Shown piece after piece: positions 18,337 to 64,000 of a stretch of 64,000 nt of DNA. The stretch is from contig CAXXSM010000118.1 in NCBI GenBank assembly GCA_963663405.2, forward strand, positions 96,001-160,000. Direction: 5' to 3'. The first letter of the stretch is position 1, and every line of letters starts with the position of its first letter. A program made the translations under genes and the position numbers. The stretch comes from a bacterium (lineage in GTDB: Bacteria; Hinthialibacterota; Hinthialibacteria; Hinthialibacterales; Hinthialibacteraceae). Below the pieces are notes generated by a model. The model was not told the origin of the DNA. It ran no database searches and saw only the letters and a program-made list of their open reading frames with translations.

Positions 18337-18386
18337 GGCACATCCCTTTCTGTCTGGGAACGAATTCCCGTTGTATTCTGCTTCCG

Positions 18387-25042: not shown

Positions 25043-25444
25043 CTATTCAGAATCATCAACAACAGTACTCAGATGTACGTTATACTCATGGTCCTGGGTT
25101 TGAAAATAGACAACCATTGTCAAGTGAAGCATCGATTCTTCCATCCAAGGCTCTTCGTAAAGGCGCCAACGGTAGCCCTCCCACGGTTCACTAAACTCAC
25201 CTGACCGCGCGCCATCCTCCCAGGATTCGGTGACGATCAGTTCGTTCAACATCCGATCGGCCAGATACACCGCGTCGATTTTCCGCTGCGCCAGGATCGA
25301 AGCCCGGTTGGCCAACGAGATTCCTTGCAACGCTGTGGGAATCACCAGAGCGATAAACAACATGGCGGTCAGTAATTCAGCGAAGGTAAAACCAGCCTCG
25401 CTCTTCACACTAGTAGGTACGAACGTATAAACGTCCGGATTCAT
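25043..25444 (-). CDS. gspI: T2SS minor pseudopilin GspI-like
   Basis: GFTFAELL prepilin motif; SGEF....YRW. Confidence 0.75.
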   Translation of the reverse strand: MNPDVYTFVPTSVKSEAGFTFAELLTAMLFIALVIPTALQGISLANRASILAQRKIDAVYLADRMLNELIVTESWEDGARSGEFSEPWEGYRWRLYEEPWMEESMLHLTMVVYFQTQDHEYNVHLSTVVDDSE

Positions 25445-25955
25445 TGTCGTAAACCTCAAAGGTAACTCCATATCTAGCCCGCATAATGATAATCGGTTCC
25501 TCATTCTCGCGGGTAATATAGAGCGCCTCCAATTCGTTCTGCTCGATCGTGCCATCCGGTTTGAACTCAATCTTCACATACCCTTGATCCGCGGCGCTGA
25601 TCGGCGTGAATTCAAAACGAACATCATCATCCAGAGTAAAGAGCATTGGAATGAACGTATCCGTTTCATAGCCTTCCGCTGGATTTAGACCGTAATACGG
25701 TTGATCCGCGTCGATCCATAAGGTCATCGGAATCGACATCGATATGGCTTCACTGCGGGCATACCGCGTCAACGCTAAAAACCGGCGCGCCTCCTCTTGC
25801 GCCGACCGTCCCCGGAAAAACCGGGATAAAGACGGCATGGCGAGCGCGATCACAGCGGACAGCATCGCCATGACGACAATAATCTCGATCAGCGTAAATC
25901 CTCGAGTCGATGGAGGATGATTATCGCTTTTCCGTATTCCAATTTGTAATATCAT
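25410..25955 (-). CDS. gspH: T2SS minor pseudopilin GspH-like
   Basis: RGFTLIEIIVV; YARSEAI; IEFKPDG. Confidence 0.8.
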   Translation of the reverse strand: MILQIGIRKSDNHPPSTRGFTLIEIIVVMAMLSAVIALAMPSLSRFFRGRSAQEEARRFLALTRYARSEAISMSIPMTLWIDADQPYYGLNPAEGYETDTFIPMLFTLDDDVRFEFTPISAADQGYVKIEFKPDGTIEQNELEALYITRENEEPIIIMRARYGVTFEVYDNESGRLYVRTY

Positions 25956-26370
25956 CGCCGCCACCTGTCCGGCCGTCCGGCCCCATGGACATCAGATCGA
26001 ATCCACGAACGTTGTTCTTGCCGGGGTATTCATAGATGTAGGGATTTTCCCAGGGATCCACAGGGATTTCATTCATATACGGACCGTGCCAATCCTTCGC
26101 GTTGGATGGCTGTTCGACCAAATCCTGAAGTCCATTGGAACCTTTAGGATAAAATCCATTGTCCACTTCAAACGCGTCCAGGACGATTTCGAAGTTGGAG
26201 ATTTGACTTTTCGCGGCGGTTATCTTGGCTTGTTCGGATCGGCCGGCGAACTTGGGAACCACAATCGCGGCCAGCGTAGCCAAGATAACGAGAACGAGCA
26301 GCATTTCCACCATCGTAAAACCGCCCTGCGGATTGCGGGGATGGATACTTTTTCTGGGGATGGATTTCAT
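25921..26370 (-). CDS. gspG: T2SS major pseudopilin GspG
   Basis: GGAGG RBS; GFTMVEMLLV; LDAFEVDNGFYP; WHGPY; DPWENPYIY; SMGPDG...DDITNW. Confidence 0.95.
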   Translation of the reverse strand: MKSIPRKSIHPRNPQGGFTMVEMLLVLVILATLAAIVVPKFAGRSEQAKITAAKSQISNFEIVLDAFEVDNGFYPKGSNGLQDLVEQPSNAKDWHGPYMNEIPVDPWENPYIYEYPGKNNVRGFDLMSMGPDGRTGGGDDITNWNTEKR

Positions 26371-26390
26371 GATATTTCCTCCGATGCGCA

Positions 26391-27641
26391 TTATTTGATA
26401 TAATCCTGAATCGTGAAAATCGGGATGACCATTCCAATAAATATAATCCCGATAAATCCTGCGATAAAAAACAGCATCAATGGTTCGGTTAGCGCCACAG
26501 CTGTGCGCAGGTTTCGATCCAGGTCCGTTTCTGTTTCATTGGCCAACCGGACCAGTTCCTGGTCTAGACGGCCGGTCTCTTCGGCCACTGAGACCATCTC
26601 CAGTACGGAACCGGGGAACAATTCGGGACAGCCCTTCAGACTCGTTGCCAGGGGATCCCCTTTCTTGACATTTTCTATCGAGTCTGAAACCGCTTCAAAC
26701 AGGATTTGATTGGGAATCGACTTCCGGGCCACATTCAATCCACGAATAAGCGGAACTCCTGAATTGAGCAGCGTTCCCAGCATCCGGCAGGAAACGGGCC
26801 ATCGCGAATTTCGCGGTTAACGGTCCCAGGACAGGAAGCCGCAATAAGAGAGTCTCATACACCCGCCGCCCCTTTTCGGACGTCAGCGCACGGTGCAGGA
26901 AAAAGACAAGCAATCCGATCCCAATCGCCACAAATAAGCCATATCCACGAATCCACTTGCTGATCCCTACAATGATCTTGTGTGATGAGTGGTAGTTCGG
27001 CGCCGAATCCCGCGAAGATCGTTTGAAATCGCGGGATAAAAAACACTAGCAGAAAAATCAACACCGATATGGCCAGCACTAGTAAAACCACCGGATAGAT
27101 TAACGCTGATATAACTTTCGAACGCAGTTCTTTTTCCCCTCCCTGAAAGTCAGCGATCTGACTCAGGACAACGATCCAAAAATCCACCGGTTTCCCCCGC
27201 CTGGACCATCGCCACGTAAACGCGAGGGAATGTACTGGGAAACCGGGCCATTGAATCCGCCAGTGAGGCGCCATCCACCACGGAATCATGAATTTCTTTC
27301 CAGCGCGCGGAGGCCGCAGGATTGGCGGTTTCTTTAACAAGGATCACAAGAGCGCGGCTCAAAGGAATTCCAGAAGCCAAAAGACTGGCTAGAAGCCGGG
27401 TAAAATTCTCCAGATCCTTAAATGAAATTCGATGTAAGGAAAACATACCGGATAAAGAGATCCCGGACTCCTGTTTTCTACTTGAGACTTCAGTAATGCG
27501 AATCGGTTTCAATCCTCGCGATTCCAGCTGGCTCAAGGCTTCCTGCCGGCCACGGGCATCGAGAAAACCTTCAGCCAGTTGTCCTCCGGCTTGCAGCGCG
27601 CGATACTGGAATCGTAAGGAGATTGTTTCGTTTTTACTCAT
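26391..27641 (-). CDS. gspF: T2SS platform protein GspF (four frameshifted fragments)
   Basis: FQYRAL; LLASGIPL; GETGG; ALIYP; LLNSGVPL; EETGRL; EPLML spread across four overlapping ORFs. Confidence 0.85.
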
Positions 27642-27686
27642 GTCCAGCCATTCCTGTTAGTACGATTCATCCTGCAAAATCATCTG

Positions 27687-29357
27687 TTAACCTGTCACCA
27701 TTTCGTCCTTCGTCACTCGAAGAACTTCACCGACAGTCGTCACTCCCTCGACAACCAAACGCCATCCATCTTCGCTGAGGGATGACATCCCAGCCCGGCG
27801 CGCGGCGTTCCGGATCTCACCCGCGGAATGTTCCCGGAGAATCATTTCACGAATCTCCTGATTGATTCCCATCATCTCAAAGACCGCCCGGCGTCCATGA
27901 AAACCAGTAGAACGGCATAACTTACATCCAGCGCCTCGATAAACCGGCTGGTTGTGTGGAAGCCCCAGTTTTTCTTTAATGGATTGGGTTTTGTCACTCT
28001 GATCTTCCACTTTGCAATGAGGGCAAAGAACCCGCACCAATCGTTGGGCCATAACGGATTCGAGTGATGAAGCGACCAAGTAAGGTTCAATTCCCATATC
28101 GACGAGACGGGTGACCGCGCTAGGCGCATCGTTTGTATGGAGAGTGGAGAAAACCAAGTGTCCGGTCAGAGACGCCTGTACAGCGATCCGCGCGGTTTCC
28201 TCATCCCGGATTTCTCCAATCAGCACAATATCCGGGTCATGCCGAAGAATCGAACGCAATCCACGGGCAAACGTCAGTCCCGCTTTTTCGGAGACTTGGA
28301 TTTGATTGATTCCTCTGATCTGGTATTCAATGGGATCTTCAATCGTGATAATTTTACGTTCAGTGTCATTGATTTCGTTCAACGCCGCGTAAAGAGATGT
28401 GGTTTTCCCGCTTCCCGTTGGGCCCGTGACGAGTACGATGCCGTGTGGGAGAGTCAAAACTTGTTGAAAAATCTGTTCATCCCGTTCGGCCATGGCCAGT
28501 TGCTGAACATTCAATAAAGTGGAATCCTGCCGTAACAGACGCATGACCACCGCTTCACCATGCAGCATAGGGATAATCGATACACGGATATCCACTTCAC
28601 CGTTTCGAATCCGGATCTTGATTCGACCGTCTTGGGGAAGACGTTTTTCCGCAATATTCAAGTGGCTGAGGATTTTCACGCGTGAAACAATGGCGGGTTG
28701 ATAGCGCTTGATTTGAGCGGGAACAGGCACTTCCTGCAGAACGCCATCAATCCGGTACCGGATACGAAGTTCATCTTCGAACGGTTCAAGGTGAATATCC
28801 GTCGCCCGTAAGTCAATCGCGTCACTCAGCACCTGGTTCACAAAACGGATAATCGAAGCGTCTTCCGCCGCTTGATCGATATCCGTTTCCTCCAACATCC
28901 CTTCATCAACCACCTGGAAGGAAGCGTCTTCTTCCAAGGAATCGATCGTATCCGCTCCAACTCCCAGCCGTCTCTTCAGTTCCCGTTTGATAGACTCACT
29001 TGGCGCAAGAACCGGTTTGAGCCGCATACCGGTCATCGAGCGCAGCAAATCCAATCCACGAGGAGCGAAGAGACGGCTGGTCGCCACTTCGACATTCCCA
29101 TTCACCTGTCGAAGCGGAATTATTTCTTCTTTCAGCAAAATCCGGGCAGGAAAACGGGTCAAAAGCCGCCGGTCGAGTTCAATATCATCCAGCAAACTGA
29201 ACGATAGAGAATACTCCTCCGCCAGCCATTGCAATACATCTTCTTCGGTTTCAACACGGATTCTTTGATCGTTCATTAACAACTGCAATGATTCCGCGTC
29301 AACTGGAGAAAGTTGCTTTAATTCAGTCATGCGCTCAAGAAGTTCATTCATTTCCAA
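27687..29357 (-). CDS. gspE: T2SS ATPase GspE
   Basis: ATDIHLEP; LPQDGR; GPTGSGKTT; TIEDPIEY; LRHDPD; STLHTNDA; CxxC..CxxC. Confidence 0.95.
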   Translation of the reverse strand: MEMNELLERMTELKQLSPVDAESLQLLMNDQRIRVETEEDVLQWLAEEYSLSFSLLDDIELDRRLLTRFPARILLKEEIIPLRQVNGNVEVATSRLFAPRGLDLLRSMTGMRLKPVLAPSESIKRELKRRLGVGADTIDSLEEDASFQVVDEGMLEETDIDQAAEDASIIRFVNQVLSDAIDLRATDIHLEPFEDELRIRYRIDGVLQEVPVPAQIKRYQPAIVSRVKILSHLNIAEKRLPQDGRIKIRIRNGEVDIRVSIIPMLHGEAVVMRLLRQDSTLLNVQQLAMAERDEQIFQQVLTLPHGIVLVTGPTGSGKTTSLYAALNEINDTERKIITIEDPIEYQIRGINQIQVSEKAGLTFARGLRSILRHDPDIVLIGEIRDEETARIAVQASLTGHLVFSTLHTNDAPSAVTRLVDMGIEPYLVASSLESVMAQRLVRVLCPHCKVEDQSDKTQSIKEKLGLPHNQPVYRGAGCKLCRSTGFHGRRAVFEMMGINQEIREMILREHSAGEIRNAARRAGMSSLSEDGWRLVVEGVTTVGEVLRVTKDEMVTG

Positions 29358-33813: not shown

Positions 33814-34089
33814 ATGATTCAATCATTTCGGTGTAAAGAAACAGAAAAAATATGGAACGGTTTATACTCATCAAAGTTACCAAGCGACATTCAGAATCGA
33901 GCCTTACGTAAATTGCGTCAGATTGACGCTGCACAAAACCTTAATGATCTACGTATACCACCGGGAAATCATTTAGAATTATTAAAAAGTGAAGAATCAA
34001 TGAGTATACGAATCAACAACCAATGGCGCATATGTTTTGTCTGGAAAGAAACAGACGCTTACAATGTCGAGATTGTAGATTATCACTAA
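33814..34089 (+). CDS. higB: HigB (RelE-like) toxin
   Basis: MIQSFRCKETEK; DLRIPPGNHLE; SIRINNQWRICF; EIVDYH. Confidence 0.92.
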   Translation: MIQSFRCKETEKIWNGLYSSKLPSDIQNRALRKLRQIDAAQNLNDLRIPPGNHLELLKSEESMSIRINNQWRICFVWKETDAYNVEIVDYH

Positions 34090-34100
34090 AAGAGGTTCTT

Positions 34101-34400
34101 ATGAATAATTTTTTAAAGAATCCACATCCAGGTGAAATATTGCTAAGAGATTTCCTAGAGCCTTTGGGTATGTCTCAAAGCGCCCTGGCAAAAGAAATCG
34201 GGATCCCTGCAAACAGGGTGGATGAGATTGTTCAGGCCCGGCGTAATATTACAGCGGATACTGATTTACGCCTATCACGTTTTTTTGGATTGACTGATGG
34301 TTACTGGCTGCGGCTTCAAAACGCCTATGATATTATGGAAGCGCGCCGCATATCTGGTGATGAGATCCAGAATATTAAAACTCGAAAAGTGTGTGTTTAG
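34101..34400 (+). CDS. higA: HigA antitoxin (XRE HTH)
   Basis: HPGEIL..DFLEPLGMSQ..LA; ITADTDLRLSRFFG; WLRLQNAYD. Confidence 0.92.
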   Translation: MNNFLKNPHPGEILLRDFLEPLGMSQSALAKEIGIPANRVDEIVQARRNITADTDLRLSRFFGLTDGYWLRLQNAYDIMEARRISGDEIQNIKTRKVCV

Positions 34401-34563
34401 AGTATAAAACACCTTCCCGAGTTCTTTGATATAAAGGTCTTAATCGTCAAAATAGCGCCGCATTGGAATCAATCTGTATACAAGACTCTTCTCCAATTAT
34501 AAGTGTGGGGGCAACTGATCAGGATGTATAATAAGGCGGCGCTAAATCGACACGATTTTTTAA

Positions 34564-34947
34564 TCATATTTGCTGCCGGTTTATATCAGTTTTTTGAACC
34601 TCAAGGCGCTTGCGTACTTGTTCGATAGAATCCGAAACACGGGCCTTGGTTTTGGCGATTTCATGCTCGATGTTCATTTCCTGCCCGAAAACTGCACCGA
34701 TGATAATATATTCATCAAAGCGGTTATAAACGGCAAAATGATTTTTCCCGGCTGGCTGCATGCTGAAAGGATTAGATCGCTCGGTGCGGGCATCGTCTCG
34801 GTTTGGGGTATCAGCAGCCTTTTGAAAGCCCTTATAAATATCCGCCATATATTTTTTGGTGTTGGCTTCACCAAAATTTTCAAGTGATCTTTTTTCGATT
34901 TTCTCAAGCTGACTATACGCTTCGTTGGTGAGCAGATATTTTGCCAT
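34564..34947 (-). CDS. ParE/RelE-family toxin
   Basis: MAKYLLTNEA..QL..I...S...FGE..T.KY; H..VY; follows an RHH antitoxin. Confidence 0.7.
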   Translation of the reverse strand: MAKYLLTNEAYSQLEKIEKRSLENFGEANTKKYMADIYKGFQKAADTPNRDDARTERSNPFSMQPAGKNHFAVYNRFDEYIIIGAVFGQEMNIEHEIAKTKARVSDSIEQVRKRLEVQKTDINRQQI

Positions 34948-34948
34948 T

Positions 34949-35224
34949 TTATTTCCAGCCGTTCTTGCGTTTTTCCTCGAACAGTTTTCTATCTTCGTAA
35001 AAATCGCCGGTGGATTCAATAACACGCCCATTTACAATATCATCATGGCTGCGCAAGATGCTTTCTGTCATTTGATCGGCTATCGAAGGATTGGTGAGCA
35101 TATCATGCCGGATCAGGTCGCGCACATATTCACTTTGATTGCTGTATAGGCCCTGATTTATAACACTTTCTACATGGTCAAGCATAGCGCCCTCAATGCG
35201 GACATTTAAGCGGGTTTCAGACAT
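34949..35224 (-). CDS. ParD-like ribbon-helix-helix antitoxin
   Basis: LNVRI...V..GLYSNQSEYVRDLIRHD. Confidence 0.8.
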   Translation of the reverse strand: MSETRLNVRIEGAMLDHVESVINQGLYSNQSEYVRDLIRHDMLTNPSIADQMTESILRSHDDIVNGRVIESTGDFYEDRKLFEEKRKNGWK

Positions 35225-43825: not shown

Positions 43826-45082
43826 TTGGCGAATGGTAAAAGCTACATGATCGAGACATCGAATGTTGGAAAATGCTACCGGCGATATCGCAATCCCTTC
43901 CACCGGATTTATGAACTTTGTGGATGGGGAAGCGAATGGCATGAAAAATTCTGGGCGTTAAAAAATGTATATCTGGATATAAACCGTGGATCCAGTTTTG
44001 GAATCATCGGTCCCAATGGCGCGGGAAAATCAACTTTATTAAAATTGCTTTCCGGCATCACTCAACCAACAGAAGGAAGTCTGAAGGTGGATGGATCGGT
44101 CGCATCGATTCTAGAACTGGGCACGGGATTCCATCCAGAATTTTCCGGACGCAGCAACGTCTATTTGAACTGCGCTTTACAAGGATATACCCGTGAAGAA
44201 ACGGACAATCTTCTTCCCCGGATCATTGAATTCTCTGAATTAGAAGATTTCATCGATCAACCAGTACGCACCTATTCCACCGGGATGTACCTTCGCTTGG
44301 CTTTCGCCGTCGCGACAACGGTTGATCCTGATGTATTGATTGTAGACGAAGCGCTGGCAGTCGGCGACGAGCGGTTCCGAAATAAATGCCTCGATAAGAT
44401 GAACGAATTCAAAGCCGCTGGAAAGACAATCCTATTCGTTTCTCACGACCTGGCGACGGTTCGTCATTTTTGCTCCCATGTCGCATTGCTTGACAAGGGA
44501 CAGATTCTCGCGCGCGGCGCGCCGGATGAAGTGCTGGATCAATATCTGGAAATGACGCATCGGGATAAAATACAGAAATCCGGCGCTGAGAGTTCTGGAT
44601 CAAACGCGCCTCGATGGGGATCGGCGGAAATCCAAATCGAACGGGTATTCATGAAAGACGCTCAAGGCCGCCAGACGGCCTTATTCGACACTCATTCCCC
44701 CGTCACGATTGAAGCGGAATTTCAAGTCAAAGCGCCGGTTCGCGGAGTGGTCTTTGGGTACCAGTTCTTCCGTTCCGACGGCGCTTACGTTCATGGTTCC
44801 AACCATTTTTGGCACAAAGAACCGGTCGCGTATGACTTTTTGAAATCCGGCGAGCGAGGGATCACGCGTTGTATCATCCCCGATCTGCCATTACTTCCTG
44901 GACAATATTATTTAACCCACTGCTGTTATAACAATTTTGACGGATTCCCAAAAGCCGTCGATCATTGGGAACGGGTCATCAATTTCACCATCAGTCAACG
45001 ATCGACCGATCAACACGGAATCTTCGCGATGGACACCGATTGGACGCTCGAACGAATCGAAATGGATGATAGAAATGAATGA
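43826..45082 (+). CDS. wzt: Polysaccharide ABC exporter ATPase with Wzt_C domain
   Basis: GPNGAGKST; LELGTGFHPE; YSTGMYLRLAFA; DEALAVGD; LLPGQY C-terminal domain. Confidence 0.9.
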   Translation: MANGKSYMIETSNVGKCYRRYRNPFHRIYELCGWGSEWHEKFWALKNVYLDINRGSSFGIIGPNGAGKSTLLKLLSGITQPTEGSLKVDGSVASILELGTGFHPEFSGRSNVYLNCALQGYTREETDNLLPRIIEFSELEDFIDQPVRTYSTGMYLRLAFAVATTVDPDVLIVDEALAVGDERFRNKCLDKMNEFKAAGKTILFVSHDLATVRHFCSHVALLDKGQILARGAPDEVLDQYLEMTHRDKIQKSGAESSGSNAPRWGSAEIQIERVFMKDAQGRQTALFDTHSPVTIEAEFQVKAPVRGVVFGYQFFRSDGAYVHGSNHFWHKEPVAYDFLKSGERGITRCIIPDLPLLPGQYYLTHCCYNNFDGFPKAVDHWERVINFTISQRSTDQHGIFAMDTDWTLERIEMDDRNE

Positions 45083-48000
45083 AAACACAAACACATTATC
45101 CAGTCATCCGCTGGACCGGCTGTATGACCGGGGATACTTTCATGGAGAAGGAAGCGGTTATAATTCAGAAGGCTATCAAAATGAACATGCGGACTGGTCC
45201 GCGTTATTGAATTTGATGCGCGAAGAAAGCGCCGGTTCAATCCGCTGGCTGGATATTGGCTGCGCGTTCGGATACCTTATCGAACAGGCCGAACAGCGTG
45301 ATATTGAAGCATATGGCGTCGATATCAGTTCATACGCCCTGCGCCAATCCTCCAAGGCGCAAGGGAAATTGAGTATGACAAACGCGGAGGCGCTGCCATT
45401 TCCAGACGATTCATTCGACGTTGTCTCTTGTTTCGATCTTGTTGAACATCTCTCCAATCCAGCGCTGGTGATCGAGGAAGCCCAGCGTGTTTTAAAACCC
45501 TACGGAATTCTTTTGATTTCCACTCCTGATCCGATTCATTTCAACCGGGAGGAACCGACACATGTTCATGAACGCCCCCCATCCTACTGGGTGCATCTAT
45601 TGGAACGGATGGGATTCGACGCCGCTCTCCGGTTTGGCGGCCGCCCCTACGAGATAGAACTACTCGCGGCTAATGAAGGGAACGAACGCTGGGAATCCCT
45701 ATCCCGGAAATTCCGGCGTCTACCAACGCCTGACGCTGAATGGATCGTTTCTGATAATGAACGCCTTTTCTTTGCGCCTCGAAATCCGCATTTCGATCGG
45801 AAAATTGAAAAACGATTCGCTTCTCTATTTCCTGAATCCTTCCAATACGCCACTGCGCCTTACGATCTCCATGCGAATATCAGATGAAAGTCACCCCAAC
45901 CTTTATCTAGAAGATCGAAAGATCCAATATCAAGGAAAAACACAAGAAGACGGCGTTTTCGTACATCAATGGTGTGAATTCACACTTCTACCAGGAGGCC
46001 GGGATCTATCTATCCGCCTTGAAAGCGATCCACTCATCATTGACCGTATTGAATTATCAGCGCGTCCATCTGACCGGGAAACCTGTTTGATGGATTTCGC
46101 ATTCGATCATTACCAACGTTACCAACTTGTTTCAGAAATCATTGACGCAATCTCCTGTAAACGGTTGTCCGTGCTGGATGTAGGGGGGGCGCGCGGGATG
46201 CTTTCTCTCTTTGCGCCGCAACATGAAGTCACTCAACTGGACTTGGTTTGGGAAGACACTCCCGGCGCGGTGAAATACGATGGCGGCGCGTTTCCATATA
46301 AGGACCGTTCGTTTGATATTGTTGTCGCGGCCGATACATTGGAACACGTTCCAAAAGAGCGGCGGGAAGCGCTGTTGGATGAACTGATCCGTGTATCGGA
46401 TCAGGCGGTGGTTTTATGTGGACCATACGATGAGCCCAATGTTTGTGACGCGGAAAACGTGATCCGTACATTTATCGGCGCGCAGTTGGGTAGAACCGAT
46501 CGGTTTTTAGAAGAACATGCGCTGTATGGACTTCCCGACCGTCAAACCGTTCGAAGATATCTAGCGAGAACCGGTATGACCGTAACGGAAATCCCAAACG
46601 GTTATTTATCCCGCTGGCTATCAATGCAGCTGGCCTCATACGCGCTGGGTGTCGCGCCGGAACTCGAAGAAGGCAAAGCCCGGTTCAACGCCATCTATAA
46701 TTCGAACTATTACCGCAGCGACAACCGATTTCCTTCTTACCGCATCGCCGCAGTCGCAACCCGCACGAAGCCTTCCTCCGAATTGGAACGCGCGCTGCAC
46801 AATTTAATCGGCGCCGATGGGAAACATGAAGATTTCGTCATGTGGAACGTCGCCTCACTAATCGTTGGGATTTCCAATTATGGATTAATTCGTGAGAAAG
46901 AGACCACGGCGGGAAAACAGATCGAGCGAATCGGCGCGCTTTTAGATCATTCGAGACATCTAGAGCATGATTTAAGAGAATTGCTGAGCCATATTACAAA
47001 CCTCGAAAGCGAGATTAAAGAAGAAGGCGCGCTGCGTAAAAAACTGGTCGAACACACCGATAATATTGACGAAATCCTGGGAAAACAAAAGAATCATTTT
47101 GAATCGGTCGAAGGTCATATTAAGAATTTAGACACTCTCTTATTTGAACAGCAAAAGCACACCTCCAATTCGCACACCCTTAATGAAGAGTTGCAAAAAC
47201 AATTCAGAGGTCTTCAAGATCATATTAAAAACCTGGACAAGCAGATCGCCGAACGTGACGAAACCTATGCGCAATCGCACAAACACATCCAGAATCTAGA
47301 TCAACACAATCAAAACCGAGACCAATTTCTTGCCAGTCTTCAAGATCACCTCCAGAATCTTGACACCCGTGATAATGAACTGCAGGAACGATTGGCGCAA
47401 ATCCAACAGCATGCGGACAACCTTTCCACGATTATCCAAGAAAAAGACTCTGCGCTCGAAAATACGCTGCAACACGCGTCCAACCTGGAAGCGATTATCA
47501 GCGAACTTAAAACCCATATCCAACAACTTGACACTCACAATAAAAACCTAGAAACCAATAGACAAGAACAAGCCAAAATGCAGGCGGATCTTCTCTCCTC
47601 GTCACAAACACATGGCAAAAATCTGGAAACGCTGCTTTCCCACTCGCAGGCCCACGCAAATAATCTTGAAGATCAGCTGCGGAATCAGAATGAAAATTGG
47701 AGAGTTCAACTCGCCGCTTCACAAGATCACGCAAATAACTTAGAACACTTGTTGAGCGATCTAAACGAAAGACTCGCTGGTCAGCAGGCGCACGCGAAAA
47801 ACTTGGAAACAATGCTCCAGGAAAAAGAACAGCAATACCAGAAAGTACATGAATCCCTAACAGAAACACAAAGTAAACTGGATACAGTCAATACTGAGAA
47901 TCAATTCTTAAGAGAGACACTAAAACAAATGACGCCCAAAATGAATCAATTGGCGGGAGAGATGGAACAGATTACAGCGGGCGCTAATAAGTTCGATCTT

Positions 48001-48186
48001 CGGTCCGCGGAAACGTTCTCTCCCGAAATCGCCGATCTATTGGAGGCATTAAATCAAGGGATTCATCGTTTGAATACAAAACGGAAACAGTGGGATCAAG
48101 CCTGCGCCTCGATGGAATCTTCGTTTGGCTATAAACTCTTCGCTCATCTCGGATGGATCCCGCGTTTGGAGGAACCGGCGGACTGA
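45075..48186 (+). CDS. Double SAM-methyltransferase plus long coiled-coil protein (one frameshift near 45810)
   Basis: LDIGCAFG..LPFPDDSFD..VEH and VLDVGG..FPYKDRSFD..LEH domains in overlapping frames; heptad HxxNL(D/E) region. Confidence 0.75.
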
Positions 48187-49985: not shown

Positions 49986-50236
49986 AACCGAATCGGATTG
50001 TACGATCTGGGAGTTTGATTCTATTACACAGGGGATACAATACTTAATAGAGATTTCCACGAGCAAACTTACGATAATTCAACTCTTTTCGAATAGAATA
50101 CGCTGTTGATTTCATCCGGAAGGCCCCTGGCGGCCTTTCTTGTTGTGATGAGTGGATCTGCGTGGGCTGTGATTATAAAGTACATCCTTATCAATATACT
50201 ATATACTATGCGCCATTCTATGAAAGGAAATCACCG

Positions 50237-51640
50237 ATGAAAGTCCTTGTTCTGAATTGTGGGAGTTCGTCCGTTAAGTTTCAATTGATCGAGACCGATA
50301 CGGAAACGGCTCTGTTACGTGGATTGGTCGAGAAGATCGGTTCTTCGTCCGGCGTGCTGTCGTTCCGGGCGGAAGGGGATCGTGATTTTCGTGAAGTTCG
50401 TGAGGTTGTCGATCATGAGGAGGCCGTCAGTCTTGTTCTCTCCATCCTCTCCCACCCGGATCAAGGAGTGGTCTCCTCCCTGGAAGAGATCAGCGCCGTC
50501 GGTCACCGTGTCGTCCATGGGGGGCAGTCTTTTTCAGAATCCGTCATCATTACCGATGAAGTGATTAAAGAGATCGAATACTGCTGCCAATTCGCGCCGC
50601 TTCACAATCCGCACAACCTTAGAGGAATCGAAGCGGTTAAAAAACCGTTGCCTTCGATTTTCCAAGTCGCGGTATTTGATACAGCGTTCCATCAACATAT
50701 GCCTGCAAAAGCCTTCTTATACGGCCTGCCCTATGGTTTATACGAAAAACGAGGCATCCGGAAATACGGTTTCCATGGAACCTCGCACCGGTTCGTCGCG
50801 CAACGAGCGGCGGAAATCCTCGGCAAACCACTTAACGAGATTCGGATCGTCACATGCCATCTGGGCAATGGTTCCAGCATCGCGGCGGTGAAGGATGGAT
50901 CATCGGTCGACACGTCAATGGGATTCACGCCACTGGAAGGCTTGATCATGGGAACGCGATGCGGTGATATCGATCCCGCCATTGTGCCGTATCTGATGGA
51001 AGTGGAAAAACTGTCCAGCAAGAAAATCGATTCCCTGATGAATAAATCCAGCGGTCTAATAGGCTTGACGGAAACCTCGAACGACATGCGTGAGATCGAA
51101 CAGGAAGCGTCCGCCGGCAGTGAACGCCATCAACTGGCCCTCGAAATGGTCGCTTATCGCATCCGCAAGTATCTTGGCGCCTACGCCTTTGTTCTCGGCG
51201 GTCTCGACGCGGTGGTCTTTACGGGTGGCATTGGAGAGAACTCCCGCGCCGTGAGAAAACTGGTTCTCAAAGGGCTGGATTTCGCGGGATTAAAATTGGA
51301 TGAGGAAAAGAATGAGCAAAACGCTGAGAACATCAGCTCCGGCCCCGTCAAAGCCCTAATCATTCCAACAAATGAAGAACTTGCGATCGCGCGGGACACA
51401 GCGGCGTTATACGAATCCATGAGCAAGCAATCCGAATCCGCCGCCAGCGAAACCCCGGCTTTAACAGCGGATGAAAAACGCGAATTGGTGCTCCTCTGGG
51501 CCAACAATCCTAACATGAATCAATTTGAGCTCGTGACATTGTTCAATCAAAAATCCGGGAAGAGCTATTCCGTAGATACATTAAGCGCGGAATTGAAATC
51601 GTTAGGTTTGGACTCCTCTTCTGCGAAAATCAGAGCGTAA
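50237..51640 (+). CDS. ackA: Acetate kinase with ~70-aa C-terminal extension
   Basis: VLNCGSSSVKFQ; GHRVVHGG; APLHNP; YGFHGTSH; HLGNGSS; TSMGFTPLEG; IPTNEEL. Confidence 0.95.
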   Translation: MKVLVLNCGSSSVKFQLIETDTETALLRGLVEKIGSSSGVLSFRAEGDRDFREVREVVDHEEAVSLVLSILSHPDQGVVSSLEEISAVGHRVVHGGQSFSESVIITDEVIKEIEYCCQFAPLHNPHNLRGIEAVKKPLPSIFQVAVFDTAFHQHMPAKAFLYGLPYGLYEKRGIRKYGFHGTSHRFVAQRAAEILGKPLNEIRIVTCHLGNGSSIAAVKDGSSVDTSMGFTPLEGLIMGTRCGDIDPAIVPYLMEVEKLSSKKIDSLMNKSSGLIGLTETSNDMREIEQEASAGSERHQLALEMVAYRIRKYLGAYAFVLGGLDAVVFTGGIGENSRAVRKLVLKGLDFAGLKLDEEKNEQNAENISSGPVKALIIPTNEELAIARDTAALYESMSKQSESAASETPALTADEKRELVLLWANNPNMNQFELVTLFNQKSGKSYSVDTLSAELKSLGLDSSSAKIRA

Positions 51641-54084: not shown

Positions 54085-54972
54085 TCAAAGAAGCGCCGTA
54101 CTGAAATAACGCTCTGCCCGGTCGGGCAGGACTGTCGCGACATTCCCTGCCCCTTTCGAGGCGAGTTGACGCGCGGCCCAAATATTCGCGCCGGATGATA
54201 TCCCCACTAGTAAGCCATGATCTCTCCCCAGTTGCCGGGTCGTTTCCACCGCTTGTTCATCCGTCACCTCTATCACTTCATCGATCAACGAAACATCAAG
54301 AACGGCCGGGATAAATCCATCCCCGATTCCCTGAATCTGGTGAAGGCCGGGTTCATGACCAAGCAGGGCGGACACGTTCTTCGGTTCAACGGCGGCAAGT
54401 TTTACATCGGGTTTACGTTCTTTCAGAAATTTCCCGATTCCCTGCAAGGTTCCTCCGCTTCCTACGCCAGCTACGAAGCAGTCGATTTCTCCATTCATCT
54501 GCCGCCATAATTCATGAGCCGTCTCTTCATAATGAACGCGGGGATTGTCGGGATTCTCGAATTGCTGTGGAACAAAGACATTAGGATCTTCTTTCTGCAT
54601 TTGACGAACCCGTTCAACCGCGCCGCCGATACTTTCTTTCGCCGGTGTGAGAACCAGTTCGGCGCCAAGGACTCGTATCAGTTTTTTTCGTTCTTCACTC
54701 ATGTTCTCCGGCATGACGATCCGCACTTTATACCCTTTGAGGCGTCCCACCAGCGCGACGCCGATCCCCGTATTGCCGGAAGTCGGCTCAACGATGATTG
54801 AGCCGGGATGAAGCCGTTTATCCCGTTCCGCGCCTTCGATCATCGAGAGCGCCACCCGGTCTTTTACGCTTCCTCCAGGATTCAAAAATTCCGCTTTCGC
54901 GTAAATGGGTTGATCTTTCAAGCGGATTAAAGGGGTGTTTCCAATTAGATTTAAAATATTATCCGTCAGCAT
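54085..54972 (-). CDS. cysK: Cysteine synthase
   Basis: IGNTPL; NPGGSVKDR; EPTSGNTG; GVGSGGT; HQIQGIG; GISSGA. Confidence 0.93.
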   Translation of the reverse strand: MLTDNILNLIGNTPLIRLKDQPIYAKAEFLNPGGSVKDRVALSMIEGAERDKRLHPGSIIVEPTSGNTGIGVALVGRLKGYKVRIVMPENMSEERKKLIRVLGAELVLTPAKESIGGAVERVRQMQKEDPNVFVPQQFENPDNPRVHYEETAHELWRQMNGEIDCFVAGVGSGGTLQGIGKFLKERKPDVKLAAVEPKNVSALLGHEPGLHQIQGIGDGFIPAVLDVSLIDEVIEVTDEQAVETTRQLGRDHGLLVGISSGANIWAARQLASKGAGNVATVLPDRAERYFSTALL

Positions 54973-55034
54973 TCATTCATCTCAATAACATAAGAATTAA
55001 GGAGCAGGTGTCAATAGTATATTAATTTGACAGC

Positions 55035-55310
55035 CTAGCAAACAATTGTAAGCCAAAAGAAAAGGAAGCCAGCCGCAGAGCTAAGAAGCGCGCCGGCAAT
55101 CGCGTATTTCTTAGGAGTATCCGTAATGAGCCCCATTAGACTCAAGAAAAATCCCATAGGAGTTCCGATTACAAATGCGATACCGCCAAGGTACCGAATC
55201 GGCGATCCTCACCCAGGGCGCAGAATAAACATTGCCAGCATAGCGAACCAAGGCATGCATGAGTACAACAAGCCTTTCCCCCCATACCGGACATTTTCAT
55301 CTTCATACAT
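55035..55310 (-). CDS. Small three-TM membrane protein with in-frame UGA at codon 34 (candidate selenoprotein or pseudogene)
   Basis: Manual translation MYEDENVRYGGKGLLYSCMPWFAMLAMFILRPG*GSPIRYLGGIAFVIGTPMGFFLSLMGLITDTPKKYAIAGALLSSAAGFLFFWLTIVC; GGAG RBS upstream. Confidence 0.6.
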
Positions 55311-55501
55311 TTTTGCTTTCTCCAACGTCAACAAGCCAAACATACAAAGGAATGATTATTGTATCCCACTTTAAACCTATATCAATCCCAGATTACGCGT
55401 AGCCGCCTAATGACAATATACATCCTGGGCGATATCTATATTTCAATCGCTGTTCAAAGTAGTATACTTGTATAAACGTTCATCCAAGGAGGTCCTCATT
55501 C

Positions 55502-57172: not shown

Positions 57173-57204
57173 CGAACCCGCCGTATCTTCCTACGGCGGG
57201 TTCG
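57173..57204. terminator. Hairpin terminator between convergent genes
   Basis: CGAACCCGCCGTA-N6-TACGGCGGGTTCG, 13-bp perfect stem. Confidence 0.75.
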
Positions 57205-57261: not shown

Positions 57262-58194
57262 CTACTGCAATAGTTCCCAACTCGGCGCCGAGGATGATTG
57301 CAATTTGGTTAACGTAAATGGACCCGTGTAGGAGAGGGGTTCACGATCAACAAGAGCTTGGGGCCGCATTCCTGCCGGTTCTTCCTCCTCGTTTTCATCT
57401 TGCCGCTCGATGGAAATGGTGAAAGTTCCGGTGATCTCGGTCCGATCTTCATTGATCTGTCCGCTTCCACTAACTGTAAACGTAAAGACTCCAACGTTCT
57501 TGATCTCCGCCGTTGTGGAATAGGAGAATTCAAACTCACTGGGATCAACTATCGTAAAGAGACCCGCAACAGGGATATCGGCCAGACGGCCTTCCTCTCT
57601 CAGCATCCCAAGAATCGTTCCTTCGGCGCCCAATTCAATAACGCCTTCCCAATTAATAATAAGAGAATCGTCATTAATATCCAATTGCCATTCGCCTTCA
57701 AGCAGTTTTCCGCCTAACGCCGGTGTGGATCCCTCACGGGTCATGATGAAAGCGACTGGAGTGGCGCTGTACGTATCGACTGGACTGATGAGTTGAGTGT
57801 AGGCTTGCGATTCTTTCCAAATACCGATTAACAGATTGTTATCTTCAGTTCCCATTCCCGTCGCGACGATTTCGGACGCGACCGCCATCTGTTTGGATTC
57901 GGCGGCGACACCAGCGCCAGCGCCAATGTATAATAACTGACGGGTTTCGGTAAATTCCGCTTTTCCACGGTGAACGGTATTGAAATTATATTCCGTATCG
58001 CCAATGGAATGAACAATCGATTCTGTAAAACTCACATTCCCTTCCGCGTCAAACGTCAGAACGCTGAATTCCGATCCAGGCACTTTGGTTTGCAGCGTCC
58101 ACGTTCCTTTCAAAGCGTCTTCCTGCGCATGAGCAAGACTCACGGCGAACAGCGAACAGACGAGACCAGCGTACAACCACTTTTTCATTCCCAT
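57262..58194 (-). CDS. Secreted beta-rich protein with two lipocalin-like G.W.L repeats
   Basis: AGGAGG RBS; signal peptide ending AHA; LKGTWTL and LEGEWQL; ends SSAPSWELLQ. Confidence 0.7.
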   Translation of the reverse strand: MGMKKWLYAGLVCSLFAVSLAHAQEDALKGTWTLQTKVPGSEFSVLTFDAEGNVSFTESIVHSIGDTEYNFNTVHRGKAEFTETRQLLYIGAGAGVAAESKQMAVASEIVATGMGTEDNNLLIGIWKESQAYTQLISPVDTYSATPVAFIMTREGSTPALGGKLLEGEWQLDINDDSLIINWEGVIELGAEGTILGMLREEGRLADIPVAGLFTIVDPSEFEFSYSTTAEIKNVGVFTFTVSGSGQINEDRTEITGTFTISIERQDENEEEEPAGMRPQALVDREPLSYTGPFTLTKLQSSSAPSWELLQ

Positions 58195-59135
58195 GTTGTA
58201 ATTCCTCCTGTGAAGCAAAAAAAGAATATAGCCCAACCACTTGACCACCTATACATGATGGACAAGATGAGCTCAAAAGACATAATAAATTATTGCATTA
58301 ATACAATTATTGTCAATCATAATTAGGAAAATAAATTACATATAGTAAAATATAAATCTCATCCGCATCTCGCTTTATAAAAAATTAGATATTTAATGTT
58401 TCGGATTTAATCTGTAGTTTGGACAGGGAACCTTGAAGAGAAGAAAAAATGAGGGAGAATCAAAGAAAGGGACGCAGGCTTGTTCGTCTCTTGGAAGAGT
58501 ACTCTTCCAACATGATTCTCCCCCCAGCGTGTTGAGTGTTTCATATCTAAAAATCAGATAACTTTTTTTTGTCCTTATCCTTTATTTCTAAATTCATACA
58601 CAATATATTTACTGAGATATATTTCAAAAATTTCTGTACAAAAAACATGATTCTGTAACATTCCATTTCAATCCAATGAATAGAAAATCGGGAAGAAATT
58701 CAATATAATAATGAAATGTATCCTGATTAACTTTACTATTTCAGGTAAATACTTTAAAAATGATTCTATTTCACATTAATTTAGGGTATAATTGAGAATA
58801 AAAGAAAAACAAAGAAAAATCTTGTCCACAATAATAGATAAAACAATTCAAATTACAATCTTTTAATTCTTTTTGGAAAATTATTTTCCATTACTTATAT
58901 GAGTAAATATTCAAATCAAGATTTTGTCAAGAAAATTTTTCTATTTTTTTAAATTACCTAAATTAAAGGTTTTTATTTCTTTGTGATGGGGATAAGATAG
59001 ATTGAATTTTGATAGATTCTTTTATGGAGAATTCGCATAATTGATTCGAGTGTTTAATCATGGAAGACAGGATTTGTTTTTAGATTTCGTTTTATGTGTC
59101 TTCTCGGATAGACAACAACAAGGAGTCGAACGATC

Positions 59136-60329
59136 TTGAAATTGTTTGGCGAATTATTACGGAACTTCCGGCGGTCTCGAAATATGACCCAGCAGGAGAT
59201 GGCCGATCGTCTTCATCTCTCTTCACCGTATATCGCTCAGATGGAGAGTGGATTTAAACCTCCTCCCCCCCAAGCGATCGTGGATAATATGGCCACGATC
59301 ATGCGTCTTGGAATCGACGAGAAAAAACAATTCACCCAGGCGGCGGAAACAGAACGCGAATTACAGAGTTTGGTGAAAGCCACTCGAAAAGTCGGGTACG
59401 TTTTGGCGGGGAACAAAGTCTGTGTGCCACAGAATTCCATCATTGAACGCGCGCAGAATGAAGTGGAGGAATTGGTCGAGTCTATCCCAAAAGATGCGGA
59501 TTTTTGTATCGATTTGGCGCCGTCGGACCGGAGAAAATGGCATCCAGGAAAGACATCCGTATCGATTTCGCGTCATGGTGAAATGCGATCGTGGATGATT
59601 GCGGAGCTAGGAAACCAACCCGGGGTTCTATTAGTTTTTTTAGGGAATCTTTATGAAGTTCTTTTACTAACACCGGATGAAAGGCTTCTCTGCCGGCATC
59701 CATCCGAACGCCGGATGGCGATTACTGAAAATGGGGATGACATCAATGAGTTCTTCCAACGGGTAAACGGCGCGATAAAAAAAGCCATCTCTTTGGCCGA
59801 AGAGCAGAGACTGCCGGAAGTGATCGCGCCGCACGTGGCTTGGAGAGACATTGATGAAATGCTCGGCGCCAGCCAGGCAAGCGAGACCGGCCAACAAACA
59901 CACGAACTGCGGGCTGGCTCGGATTCGATCCGTAACATCCCTGTTCTCTACATTGTTGAAGCCGGATCGGAAGAATTGGAAGAACGGCCGGGATTGGGCA
60001 GCATCGGACTTCCGCACAATTGGTTCGATTCAACGAGAAAATATGAAGCCTGCAAGATCCAAACCGACGCGTATATATCAATCGGCGTTTGGCCAGGATG
60101 TAAAACGATCTATGAATTGAGCAATGACGCTGAAAATGAAGACCTCGTGATCGTGAAACTTGGCAACCGGATTTGCTTCCGTCGCTATTTTGATTTCGGC
60201 GATCAGATTCTCTTGCAAGGGGGGCCTTTGGCGAAACCGATCCGTGTATTGAAGGGAGAGTCGTCGATCCGTTTTGTGGGGGTTGTGCGAGAATTGGTAT
60301 CCCGGTTTAGGGATATTCAGTATTCATAA
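59136..60329 (+). CDS. XRE-family HTH regulator with degenerate LexA/S24-like C-terminal domain
   Basis: AAGGAG RBS plus TTG start; FGELLR..R....MTQQEMA...S..YIAQMESG; IPVL..VEAG; C-terminal VGVV. Confidence 0.75.
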   Translation: MKLFGELLRNFRRSRNMTQQEMADRLHLSSPYIAQMESGFKPPPPQAIVDNMATIMRLGIDEKKQFTQAAETERELQSLVKATRKVGYVLAGNKVCVPQNSIIERAQNEVEELVESIPKDADFCIDLAPSDRRKWHPGKTSVSISRHGEMRSWMIAELGNQPGVLLVFLGNLYEVLLLTPDERLLCRHPSERRMAITENGDDINEFFQRVNGAIKKAISLAEEQRLPEVIAPHVAWRDIDEMLGASQASETGQQTHELRAGSDSIRNIPVLYIVEAGSEELEERPGLGSIGLPHNWFDSTRKYEACKIQTDAYISIGVWPGCKTIYELSNDAENEDLVIVKLGNRICFRRYFDFGDQILLQGGPLAKPIRVLKGESSIRFVGVVRELVSRFRDIQYS

Positions 60330-61093: not shown

Positions 61094-61477
61094 CTTTTTC
61101 CTCCGCAATATTCTTTGTCCTACAAAATTAATCCAGCCAAATCATCATCCACCAAAAAATCTCTTGCTCAATTCGAATTGTACAAATAAACGTTTTTCAG
61201 TTCTTTTCGTTAATCATTAATGCAGTCATTCGCTCATTGGAATTTTTATTCCTTTACACTTAATACAACCGGAAAAATGACAGAAAAAAAGGGATATAGA
61301 ATAACCTGATTTATAACAATTTACTTTCACAACGGTAGTATATGATGTAATAAATTCCGTAACCGCCGTCACAATGAATTTATCGGAATGATGAAACTTT
61401 TAGAAGAAGAACCAACTGCCTTGGAACATTATAATGAAATCCACATTGCGTGATGGATTGATGATTGGAATTCAATA

Positions 61478-64000
61478 ATGAGAAGAACCGCTCTAGTATT
61501 CATCTTTTTACTTATTATTGTCTTCTTGCTTGTACTTGTTATTAATCAATCAGAAAATCGCGATCCAAAGCAATCTGATGTGAAAATTACTTATGGTCCT
61601 CCGCCTTCTCAAGATAAGATTATTCAATTCACAATTGAAGCCGATGAAACCGGGCAATCTGCGCCTACAGTTAAATCAGAGAATCGAGTTACCGATTCGA
61701 CTCCGGTTGAAACAACGTATCATCAAGCAGAAAGATGTTTGCTGATTCAAGATGCCATAGGTCAAGGGATTCAACATGGGAAGATTTCTTTGGCCACGGA
61801 GGCGTATGATTTTTGGGAAGGGCGTTTTGGCCTTCCGGTTTTGTTAGGGGGAGAAATACTCGTCACGGTTAAAGCGGAAGGTTATTTTTCCACTAGTTAT
61901 CCAATCAATTTCGATCAACAATCATTCGAACCTATCATTCTTGAATACAAATCTGCTTTTACGATTCTTGTTTTGAATCATAACGGATTACCATGCGGCA
62001 ATGCGGCCGTTCGTTTGATGAAGGTTTCATCTCCCATTCGACCAACCATAGTAGAATCATCTATCGCCACTAGCCGCGGATATTTGCCTTCAATTAATGT
62101 TGTGAATCGAAAAGAAGGTGATTGTGTTGTTGCCAGCGCCAACCGTTTAATCCATAAAAATAATACGGTCATTCTTCCTTATGGACAAACCAAGCCGAAA
62201 TTAGGGGATCAACTCATCTCCGTTGGTAATTGTTCATGGAATTCTTCCATATCCCCCTTCTACTTCACTCAGAAAATTGCTTGGTTTAACTATGTTTATT
62301 TTCCAATTATTACAGAAAAATCTTCCATGCTCCGGATGTGGGATACATTAACTTACTCAAAGGCAAGCGCAGAAGGATATTGTTGTACGGCAAAAGAATA
62401 TTGCGAAATTAGAAGGAATGGAGAACGCGGTTTTTATTTTCTTTCCTTTCCTGACTGTATGCCAAATCCATCCATCGTGAAAGAGGCAAAAACGAATGTG
62501 AAAGGTGAATGCCAATTTATCGATCTATATCCTGCCTTATATTATGTCCAAGCATTTAACGGAAATAGTCACAGTGATTTGGTACCGCTGCATCCTTCCT
62601 GTTCGGGTACGCAATTGACACTTGTCGATTCGAGCGAGGTTTTTGTGCGAGTAAAAAGGAGTGGAATCAAATCAAATAATCAAGCGTATCATGTTGTAGA
62701 AGATATTCCTGTAATTCTAAAATCGTTAGAAGGGAAAGGCATTTTCTCAACCAATACAGATTTTGATGGATTCTCCTGTTTTCAAAACGTACCTTTTGGA
62801 GATTATGAACTCGTTGTAAGTACACCGAATGAGATTGTTAATGAAAAAGTCATAATTGATACGCTGGAAGAAAAATTTACCATCCAATTAAAAAGCTGGG
62901 AACGATACACCGTTTCGGGTACAGTAATTGATAAAGAAACGAATCTCCCTGTCACTGGATTTGAATTATCTCTTTGTTATGAAGCGCGTTTTGAGATGAA
63001 AGGTGAGCATTCTACCACAATCTCCGATTCTGTGGGGAGATTTATGTTCGAGGATGTAATACCCGGTACTTATTCAATAGGTGGTAAAATACCTGCGAAT
63101 ACTGACAAAATGTCCTCTCTTGAAACAATACAATACTTATCTAAATTTGAAAGTTCTATGTTAGAAAGTTTTTTAATGGCTTCTGATACCTATGGATCAA
63201 GAAAACAAATCGCTGTTAGTAACGATAATATTGAGAATTTAGTTATTCCTGTAGAGAAAGTGATACAAACTCATTTGGCTGGGAAAGTAATCTATAAAAA
63301 TGGAATTCCCGCAGAGGAAATACCCATAACAATAACCGCAAAGTATCCAACACGGATGCAAGCATCTTCTTTTCTAGCAACTGTACCTAATGAACCTAAG
63401 ACTGACACTAAAGGCCATTTCGAATTCACAATCATTAGTGATACATTTCAGACTGACAAACCGATAGAATTACGACTTACCGCAACAAAAGGACAAATAA
63501 TTCCAAGTTATTGGGAACAAAAGGAGGATGATTCCTATGAATTTATTGAGTCAAAGACCATCCCCTATTTTTTGGGTAGCACGAATGTTAGTGGATTTCC
63601 CGGCGATACATTTGACGATATTGTCATTGTTTTATCTGCAGTAGAGAATAAAATAATAGGCGGTAAATTACTTTCTGAAGAAAATGACTACTCACAACTA
63701 ACAATATACGCTTATCAAAATAATCAAAATCTGCCTATACAAATCAATTCGATGGGAGAATTCAATATCCATAATGTTGAATCAGGAATAGTCAATATTT
63801 TGCTTCACCCACGCTATTATACATTTATTGATACTTCATTTGGAAAACAGAGGTCTATAAAATACATATTACAAAATATTCTTATTAATGTGCCGGAAAA
63901 CGAACAATATGTGAATGCTGATATTTCACTGTCACCCGCAGGCTATTTTTGGGGAGTCGTCTTAAATGCACAAGCGCAGCCAGTTCCTGGAGTATTAGTA
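61478..64000 (+). CDS. Large membrane-anchored protein with carboxypeptidase-regulatory-like repeats (partial, runs off the window)
   Basis: MRRTALVFIFLLIIV...; the 5' and 3' ends are in the same frame (841 codons; not every codon checked); TD..G.F.F.NVP.G.Y and SG.V.D..T..P repeats; low GC. Confidence 0.7.
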   Translation, partial: MRRTALVFIFLLIIVFLLVLVINQSENRDPKQSDVKITYGPPPSQDKIIQFTIEADETGQSAPTVKSENRVTDSTPVETTYHQAERCLLIQDAIGQGIQHGKISLATEAYDFWEGRFGLPVLLGGEILVTVKAEGYFSTSYPINFDQQSFEPIILEYKSAFTILVLNHNGLPCGNAAVRLMKVSSPIRPTIVESSIATSRGYLPSINVVNRKEGDCVVASANRLIHKNNTVILPYGQTKPKLGDQLISVGNCSWNSSISPFYFTQKIAWFNYVYFPIITEKSSMLRMWDTLTYSKASAEGYCCTAKEYCEIRRNGERGFYFLSFPDCMPNPSIVKEAKTNVKGECQFIDLYPALYYVQAFNGNSHSDLVPLHPSCSGTQLTLVDSSEVFVRVKRSGIKSNNQAYHVVEDIPVILKSLEGKGIFSTNTDFDGFSCFQNVPFGDYELVVSTPNEIVNEKVIIDTLEEKFTIQLKSWERYTVSGTVIDKETNLPVTGFELSLCYEARFEMKGEHSTTISDSVGRFMFEDVIPGTYSIGGKIPANTDKMSSLETIQYLSKFESSMLESFLMASDTYGSRKQIAVSNDNIENLVIPVEKVIQTHLAGKVIYKNGIPAEEIPITITAKYPTRMQASSFLATVPNEPKTDTKGHFEFTIISDTFQTDKPIELRLTATKGQIIPSYWEQKEDDSYEFIESKTIPYFLGSTNVSGFPGDTFDDIVIVLSAVENKIIGGKLLSEENDYSQLTIYAYQNNQNLPIQINSMGEFNIHNVESGIVNILLHPRYYTFIDTSFGKQRSIKYILQNILINVPENEQYVNADISLSPAGYFWGVVLNAQAQPVPGVLV

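Follow-up and report, generated by a model that had tools for sequence, protein, structure and literature searches.

Organization of the locus

The locus lies on the reverse strand of a 64,000-nucleotide stretch of bacterial DNA (the window) and consists of a small gene at 55035–55310(−) followed on the same strand by cysK (54085–54972), the gene for cysteine synthase A (TIGR01139, 377.7 bits compared with a cut-off of 350.95). The small gene has 91 codons and, judging from its frame, its homologs and a structure model, it is predicted to encode a selenoprotein belonging to an unnamed family of three-helix membrane proteins. Its frame runs from 55310 to 55035 as an ATG, 90 further codons and a TAG, which is separated from the ATG of cysK (54972) by 62 bp. 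It is interrupted by a single in-frame TGA at codon 34 (55209–55211), in the context RPG*GS, after which 57 codons continue. A GGAG ribosome-binding motif is located at 55320–55323(−), 9 nt 5′ of the ATG. A further in-frame ATG is present 11 codons upstream; eight of the nine homologs that span codon 34 begin within three columns of the ATG at 55310. The gene is absent from the list of open reading frames because neither of its two pieces makes 50 amino acids from a start codon. The description given by the sequence-only reading, a model's first look at these letters (the missed 91-codon minus-strand frame, its GGAG motif, the lone TGA and the distance to cysK), thus stands in full.

Two σ70-like promoter consensus sites flank the gene. 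The upstream one (55358–55385, minus strand) is a consensus match only, with 10/12 positions, and the other (54987–55014, minus strand; 10/12, TTGACA-16-TATGTT) lies in the 62-bp gap, where it could serve cysK. It should be noted that the consensus scan of the region returned seven sites compared with 4.6 expected by chance. The link to sulfur metabolism that the sequence-only reading had drawn from the proximity of cysK found no support, cysK having a promoter-like site of its own in the gap.

The other neighbours encode an acetate kinase, a HEAT-repeat protein and an FG-GAP/ASPIC protein, and the directly adjoining genes look whole. The acetate kinase (50162–51640, plus strand) carries a C-terminal extension of about 70 residues that is weakly HTH-like (E = 0.02). 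A strong 13-bp hairpin at 57173–57204, with a terminator score on both strands, separates the convergent FG-GAP/ASPIC gene and a 328-aa gene. Two secreted-looking proteins (57262–58248 and 9190–10887, both on the minus strand) end in similar short Trp-containing tails without an NCBIfam match, which we take to be, from their resemblance, a possible lineage-specific sorting signal. Further along the window are a LexA/CI-like regulator with HTH and peptidase S24 domains, whose long central part has no match (59136–60329, plus strand), and a frame with carboxypeptidase-regulatory-like repeats (61454–64000, plus strand) that stays open for 848 codons or more and runs off the window end. Two small convergent genes at 34023–35031 encode an HTH_3 protein, the only one of the two with a match, and a 155-aa open frame; the former resembles a HigA antitoxin and the latter ParE.

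Both halves of the small gene are recognized by a profile built from the homologs without the window protein: the 5′ half (33 aa) scores 19.7 bits and the 3′ half (57 aa) 74.1 bits, and for each half none of 500 shuffles scores as high. The stretch 55035–55310(−) is a real gene, beyond chance. The window protein has a leave-one-out score of 92.9 bits, the top of the ten full-span members of a family that was gathered around it, and with both halves conserved the protein looks undecayed. The codon-usage score of the frame is 0.13 bits per codon, compared with −0.15 to 0.05 in the other five frames, which is supportive of the frame, yet low for the window.

A family of small three-helix membrane proteins

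An exhaustive search of 1.84 billion representative sequences returned 11 proteins at E ≤ 0.001. A first profile search added one homolog (six matches among 7404 candidates) and a second added five (eight matches among 183 candidates, three of which were the query's own). The total is thus 17 homologs, and this small, unnamed family of three-helix membrane proteins is matched by both halves of the window protein. A word-based protein search with the read-through protein scored none of its six candidates, plasmids searched by tblastn with P0002 and P0015 and phages searched with the window protein gave nothing, and the one locus from a scan of GTDB genomes (L001) was rejected, being a chance match to the antisense strand of a glgB-like gene. 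NCBIfam release 20 has no match for the window protein or for any of the 17 homologs (no family in one scan of 12 members and none in a second scan of seven proteins including the six further members). In Pfam, two fusion proteins match DUF922 and the remaining matches are scattered and weak, in transmembrane segments. Sequence searches of PHROGs, PADLOC and the PDB revealed no family, and with two homologs as queries the Atlas returned hypothetical clusters only (0.90–0.92).

Column 34 of the alignment is occupied in the nine spanning homologs by R, W, W, S, C, C, A, Q and Y, the loop of the Y homolog carrying an insertion. The Cys homologs that the sequence-only reading had called for therefore exist, namely P0006 and P0009, in which Cys34 aligns ungapped with the TGA and the residue numbering is identical to that of the window protein; the seven others have no Cys here, so that the position is not restricted to Sec/Cys across the family. 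The same reading had named Trp, Arg or Gly in homologs as grounds for refutation, and this applies in part: Trp occurs twice and Arg once, the latter in the best-scoring homolog and in the same RPG-x-G context. P0006 and P0009 rank fifth and eighth of the 11 proteins from the exhaustive search, which agrees on rank with the deep-Sep filter, where two or more of the top ten hits have to be Cys homologs (PMC12013277); both belong to one clade (100/99 support), with about 26–30% identity. Column 34 holds two of the five cysteines found among 794 aligned residues. Moreover, Trp or Cys occurs here in 4/9 spanning homologs, compared with a background of 2.2%. Codon 34 would thus hover around TGN, which fits selenocysteine and also eases a TGG-to-TGA change. 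Indeed, a single transition suffices to create the TGA, either from CGA or from TGG. A tree over the 45 shared columns has only two of 15 branches well supported, so that the order of events is not readable from it.

Predicted structure and topology

The three hydrophobic segments of the sequence-only reading are borne out by 19-residue Kyte–Doolittle peaks of 1.48, 2.04 and 1.91 and by an AlphaFold model (18-row alignment, mean pLDDT 80.6), which consists of three helices. Following a presumed cytoplasmic N-terminus, helix 1 (TM1) covers residues 9–30 (55221–55286, minus strand). The TGA of codon 34 falls in the loop between TM1 and TM2. Helix 2 (TM2) covers residues 37–63 (55122–55202, minus strand) and is followed by an invariant Asp64 and a lysine-rich, predicted inside loop. 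Helix 3 (TM3) covers residues 68–90 (55041–55109, minus strand), and the protein ends with Cys91 (55038–55040, minus strand). The best Foldseek match has an E value of 1.4 and the best VIA match (Z = 8.5, r.m.s.d. 4.4, 82 aligned residues) is a designed helical repeat; the predicted fold is a generic three-helix bundle.

Over nine proteins, the N-terminus has 26 Lys and Arg residues, loop 1 has ten and loop 2 has 27. By the positive-inside rule, these counts point to an N-in/C-out orientation, with loop 1 outside and loop 2 inside. Residue 34 and Cys91 would then sit on the same, outer face by virtue of the three-helix topology, and the model suggests that they could form a Sec–Cys redox or metal-binding pair, Cys91 being the proposed partner of residue 34. 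A DUF922 domain with an HExxH-like motif is fused to the three-helix domain in P0006 and P0009 only, which are also the homologs with Cys34. DUF922 is a secreted metalloprotease-like fold, and its position after TM3 agrees with a C-out topology. These two homologs are without a Cys at the end of TM3, so that the proposed 34–91 pair is absent from both.

The UGA of codon 34 and the genetic code of the window

Among 29 window genes, TGA is the stop codon of nine, as the sequence-only reading had said of other genes here, and internal stops occur in none; TGG is used 183 times. A genome-wide reassignment of UGA (code 4 or 25) is rejected on the basis of these nine TGA stops and the lack of internal ones. 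No tRNA or Rfam match was found in the 64 kb of the window and no sel gene was seen among the window ORFs listed or scanned.

Of 340 stops with open frames on either side, the 25 with the best scores were inspected, and no other in-frame stop was seen to interrupt a recognizable gene; the other lesions noticed in the window are changes of frame (indels). One heavily affected stretch is a type II secretion-like cluster at 17062–29357(−), in which gspF is split into four pieces over three frames (T2SSF is recognized on three of the four), the secretin is also in four pieces (secretin domains on three of the four gspD pieces) and the PilM/PilN-like genes are fragmented, with gspE and the pseudopilin genes looking whole. 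Either this is a low-quality stretch of the consensus or the operon is decaying. Since the assembly shows repeated frame changes at 17–28 kb, a base error at codon 34 is possible. Two methyltransferase-bearing ORFs at 44937–48186(+), which overlap by about 215 bp in different frames, are probably one frameshifted gene with a break near 45.8 kb. At 11422–13194(−), an IS91-type transposase (Y2_Tnp, Zn_Tnp_IS91) lies directly behind a tyrosine recombinase and is followed by a gene fragment without a Pfam match (13473–14030).

The hairpin downstream of the UGA

The stem–loop noticed by the sequence-only reading 12 nt past the UGA is confirmed: the upper stem has 7 bp (55178–55196, minus strand), a loop UUGGC at 55189–55185 that begins 19 nt past the UGA and an energy of −7.8 kcal mol−1; it was also called terminator-like. 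It is the tip of an extended hairpin starting at the UGA itself (55158–55209, minus strand), a candidate atypical SECIS element composed of a base stem of 4 bp that includes the A of the UGA, a lower stem of 6 bp, a 7-nt bulge and the upper stem, reaching to +51. The 55 nt from the UGA fold with −19.3 kcal mol−1.

How far the stability of this structure exceeds chance depends on the length that is folded. At 55 nt, a length picked after looking, five of 200 dinucleotide shuffles are as stable, compared with 20/200 at 52 nt and 22/200 at 82 nt. At 54 nt the structure is more stable than 1950 of 2000 synonymous recodings (50/2000 fold as well), and of 25 segments compared along the gene this one ranks first (z = −2.19), whereas at 60 nt 216/2000 recodings fold as well. 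The excess of stability is thus non-significant at 52, 60 and 82 nt. Compared with the 2582 TGAs of the window, 40 fold as well as that of codon 34 and 55 are followed 10–14 nt downstream by the start of a similar 7-bp stem with a G-containing loop. The hairpin goes modestly beyond chance, in a manner that varies with the length folded.

The consensus bacterial SECIS element, as summarized in PMC13188914, has a loop of 3–9 nt, an upper stem of 4–16 bp, a spacing of 16–37 nt, a minimum free energy of ≤ −7.5 kcal mol−1 and a G at loop position 1 or 2. The hairpin lies within these limits for loop (5 nt), stem (7 bp), spacing (19 nt) and energy. On the other hand, the UUGGC loop has its G residues at positions 3–4, outside the strict loop rule, as the sequence-only reading had conceded in calling the fit imperfect, and the alternative register that would place a G at position 1–2 has an energy of +2.6 compared with −7.8 kcal mol−1. 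In our own implementation the strict rule has low power, since 289 of the 2582 arbitrary window TGAs pass it. A recent hydrogenase study reports the loop G in 100% of Sec-type sequences (PMC13582414), which counts against selenocysteine at codon 34. Yet atypical SECIS elements exist, at least 40 known genes (13%) being missed by bSECISearch according to the deep-Sep paper (PMC12013277), and the departure from the strict rule therefore weighs less.

Shortened homologs and the terminal cysteine

Eight of the 17 homologs are database gene calls of 42–59 aa, known as protein sequences alone. They begin at columns 37, 37, 38, 44, 47, 47, 48 and 49, that is 3–15 residues past codon 34, and a single shortened call begins upstream of it, at column 12. 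Under a rough, post hoc null of uniform starts, this clustering past column 34 has a probability of 0.001 by sequence and 0.02 by lineage. The second profile search accepted lengths of up to 104 aa, and all five of its new homologs are short. Six of the eight calls start with Met. P0007 is an identical 59-aa call on four contigs, the longest of 7796 bp; P0014, which is 85% identical to it, starts at the same column, and P0015 and P0016 begin at a Met that is internal in P0007. Some short calls come from contigs of 399–1191 bp. Starts past column 34 are the pattern that gene callers would yield downstream of a shared internal stop, and we infer that the short homologs carry the UGA. Truncated calls past an internal stop are a signal that PMC13188914 credits to Haft's approach.

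A Cys is present in the last two residues of seven of the eight short homologs and of the window protein, whereas of the seven homologs that are full-length and stand alone one has it (Fisher 0.010; 0.080 once near relatives are collapsed), and it lies 26–31 residues past the invariant Asp64. The lone full-length stand-alone homolog with this Cys, P0004, has Trp in column 34, and the codon behind this Trp could be a TGA that was translated with table 4. Gly-Gly coding for the hairpin loop is present in P0007 and P0014 and in none of the nine spanning homologs, a weak observation from one lineage. The short homologs and the window protein form no supported clade, and the short-call label is not clustered on the tree (98 of 500 shuffles are as low). 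All of these statistics are post hoc, on small and related samples.

Discussion

The small gene works most plausibly like a selenoprotein gene, even though two of the usual features failed when they were tested. The sequence-only reading had proposed a membrane selenoprotein, and this is partly supported, by evidence that is real and indirect: the two Cys homologs, the eight calls starting past column 34, the terminal Cys and the UGA-anchored hairpin argue for it, and the seven non-Cys spanning homologs and the loop outside the strict SECIS rule argue against it. Taking these together, we lean towards the UGA of codon 34 being read as selenocysteine. SelB would act at the downstream hairpin to recode the UGA, giving a 91-residue three-helix inner-membrane protein in which the short outer loop that joins TM1 to TM2 carries Sec34. 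Cys91 would close TM3 on the same face and would most likely form with Sec34 a selenol/thiol pair at the outer membrane surface. Such a pair might serve redox relay or sensing by way of a reversible selenenyl-sulfide, or else make up a two-ligand site for a soft metal; the 34–91 contact and either role are deduced from the predicted topology. Family members that lost the UGA would mostly be without the terminal Cys too.

We may wonder whether this is instead an ordinary small membrane-protein gene in which a recent nonsense mutation, or a base-call error, has turned an Arg, Trp or Cys codon of a variable loop into TGA, with contig-edge or mis-started short homologs and an incidental hairpin. 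The variability of column 34 and the Arg of the best homolog are what would be expected in this case, as are the position of the loop G, the presence of a comparable hairpin after about 2% of the window TGAs and the many frameshifts elsewhere in the window. Partial gene calls are moreover common in metagenomic catalogues, and of the two halves the C-terminal one is detected more readily (74 compared with 20 bits). This would leave unexplained why eight of nine shortened calls start past column 34, why six of the eight start with Met, why P0007 recurs on four contigs and why the terminal Cys tracks the truncation; nor does the gene show other decay, the other lesions noticed being indels. We therefore regard a mutation or base error as rather unlikely, while taking it seriously.

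The UGA could also be a true stop in a split locus, made of a 33-aa peptide and a piece of two helices with a start of its own, or the short homologs could be genuine two-helix proteins. The starts of P0015–P0018 within three columns (47–49), the whole helix 2 retained by P0007 and P0014 and an in-frame ATG at codon 52 are in keeping with this, yet the starts vary by lineage (37–38, 44, 47–49), several of them halve helix 2 and a start at codon 52 leaves just 12 residues of TM2. In a variant, the hairpin, terminator-like as it was called, would be an attenuator or terminator tuning read-through into cysK; the promoter-like site of cysK itself and the weak T-tail after the hairpin speak against this. 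We find a split locus in either form improbable. Finally, the UGA might be read as Trp or Cys, be it by a suppressor tRNA, by recoding confined to this locus or under an altered genetic code. The excess of Trp and Cys at column 34 would suit this reading, and SECIS-dependent UGA recoding mediated by tRNAs with more than one anticodon type has been described (PMC13582414). However, genome-wide reassignment is excluded by the TGA stops and the regular use of TGG in the window, and the same excess fits selenocysteine equally, which makes reading as Trp or Cys very improbable indeed.

Most of the bacterial selenoproteins catalogued so far are redox enzymes that are soluble and carry CxxU or UxxC motifs. 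The small gene shares with the bacterial selenoproteins treated in PMC13188914 an in-frame UGA flanked on either side by conserved coding sequence, a stem–loop 16–37 nt downstream, Cys homologs and truncated database calls; it differs by having no CxxU, UxxC or CU motif, by the loop G at position 3 and by the lack of Cys or Sec in most spanning homologs. None of the 119 families and subfamilies in Table 1 of that review matches the window protein. A precedent among membrane proteins, the SaoP ABC permease of Haft and Gwadz (bioRxiv 10.1101/2022.07.06.499078), is likewise integral to the membrane and has a single Sec, for which pairing with a second selenol or metal binding is proposed; it was recognized via truncated database calls, and the server SECIS prediction failed for it too. 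SaoP is, however, a MetI-like permease of 268 aa encoded in a nine-gene operon, with the pairing placed across a homodimer, whereas the window protein has 91 aa and no ABC context, and its proposed partner is its own terminal Cys.

The deep-Sep hypothetical proteins DG (NF049953, GUxG) and DF (NF049942) resemble the window protein in their short Gly-Sec motif and lack of a known domain, although neither the window protein nor its 17 homologs match NCBIfam release 20. A language model relates P0002 (0.89, 34% of the cluster) and P0007 (0.85, 24% of the cluster) to DUF6142 (PF19639) and similar small three-helix proteins, with scores below the lead threshold of 0.9 and no Pfam match, so that only the architecture is shared. 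Relays of the DsbB/VKOR type are membrane thiol–disulfide redox systems whose redox pair on the outer face of a helical bundle is comparable to the one proposed here, but the window protein has three helices, no CxxC and no quinone site that we could see, and no sequence or fold match to them. MerT has about three transmembrane segments and Cys pairs. The MerT-like (PF02411, C/SxxU) and YeeE/YedE (PF04143, GUxSG) proteins are membrane Sec proteins that the review table of PMC13188914 lists; none of the 18 family members matches either Pfam entry (E up to 1), and the motifs differ.

The protein may, tentatively, be the founding member of an uncatalogued family of three-helix selenoproteins of about 90 residues, hidden in databases as fragments of 42–59 aa, in which an outer-loop Sec and a C-terminal Cys would make up a minimal membrane redox or metal switch, the SECIS element would carry its G at loop position 3 and Sec would have been lost to Arg, Trp or Ser, and not to Cys, once the pair was discarded. 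No description of such a family was found in the articles consulted, among them BSepDB (PMC13326102) and PMC9324843, although article supplements, the BSepDB database itself or the groundwater candidates cited in the review could already include it.

Should a nonsense mutation or base error be the explanation after all, the locus would merely be a broken gene of a small unnamed family. If codon 34 is indeed read as selenocysteine, the protein would represent a new architecture, in which 91 residues integral to the membrane combine one isolated Sec with a terminal Cys far from it, and would offer a very small model for studying how selenium reacts at a membrane surface. A blind spot would be revealed as well: current searches depend on numerous Cys homologs and on a loop G at position 1 or 2, whereas the family has few Cys homologs and no such G. 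It would thus add an undescribed family to the bacterial selenoproteins.
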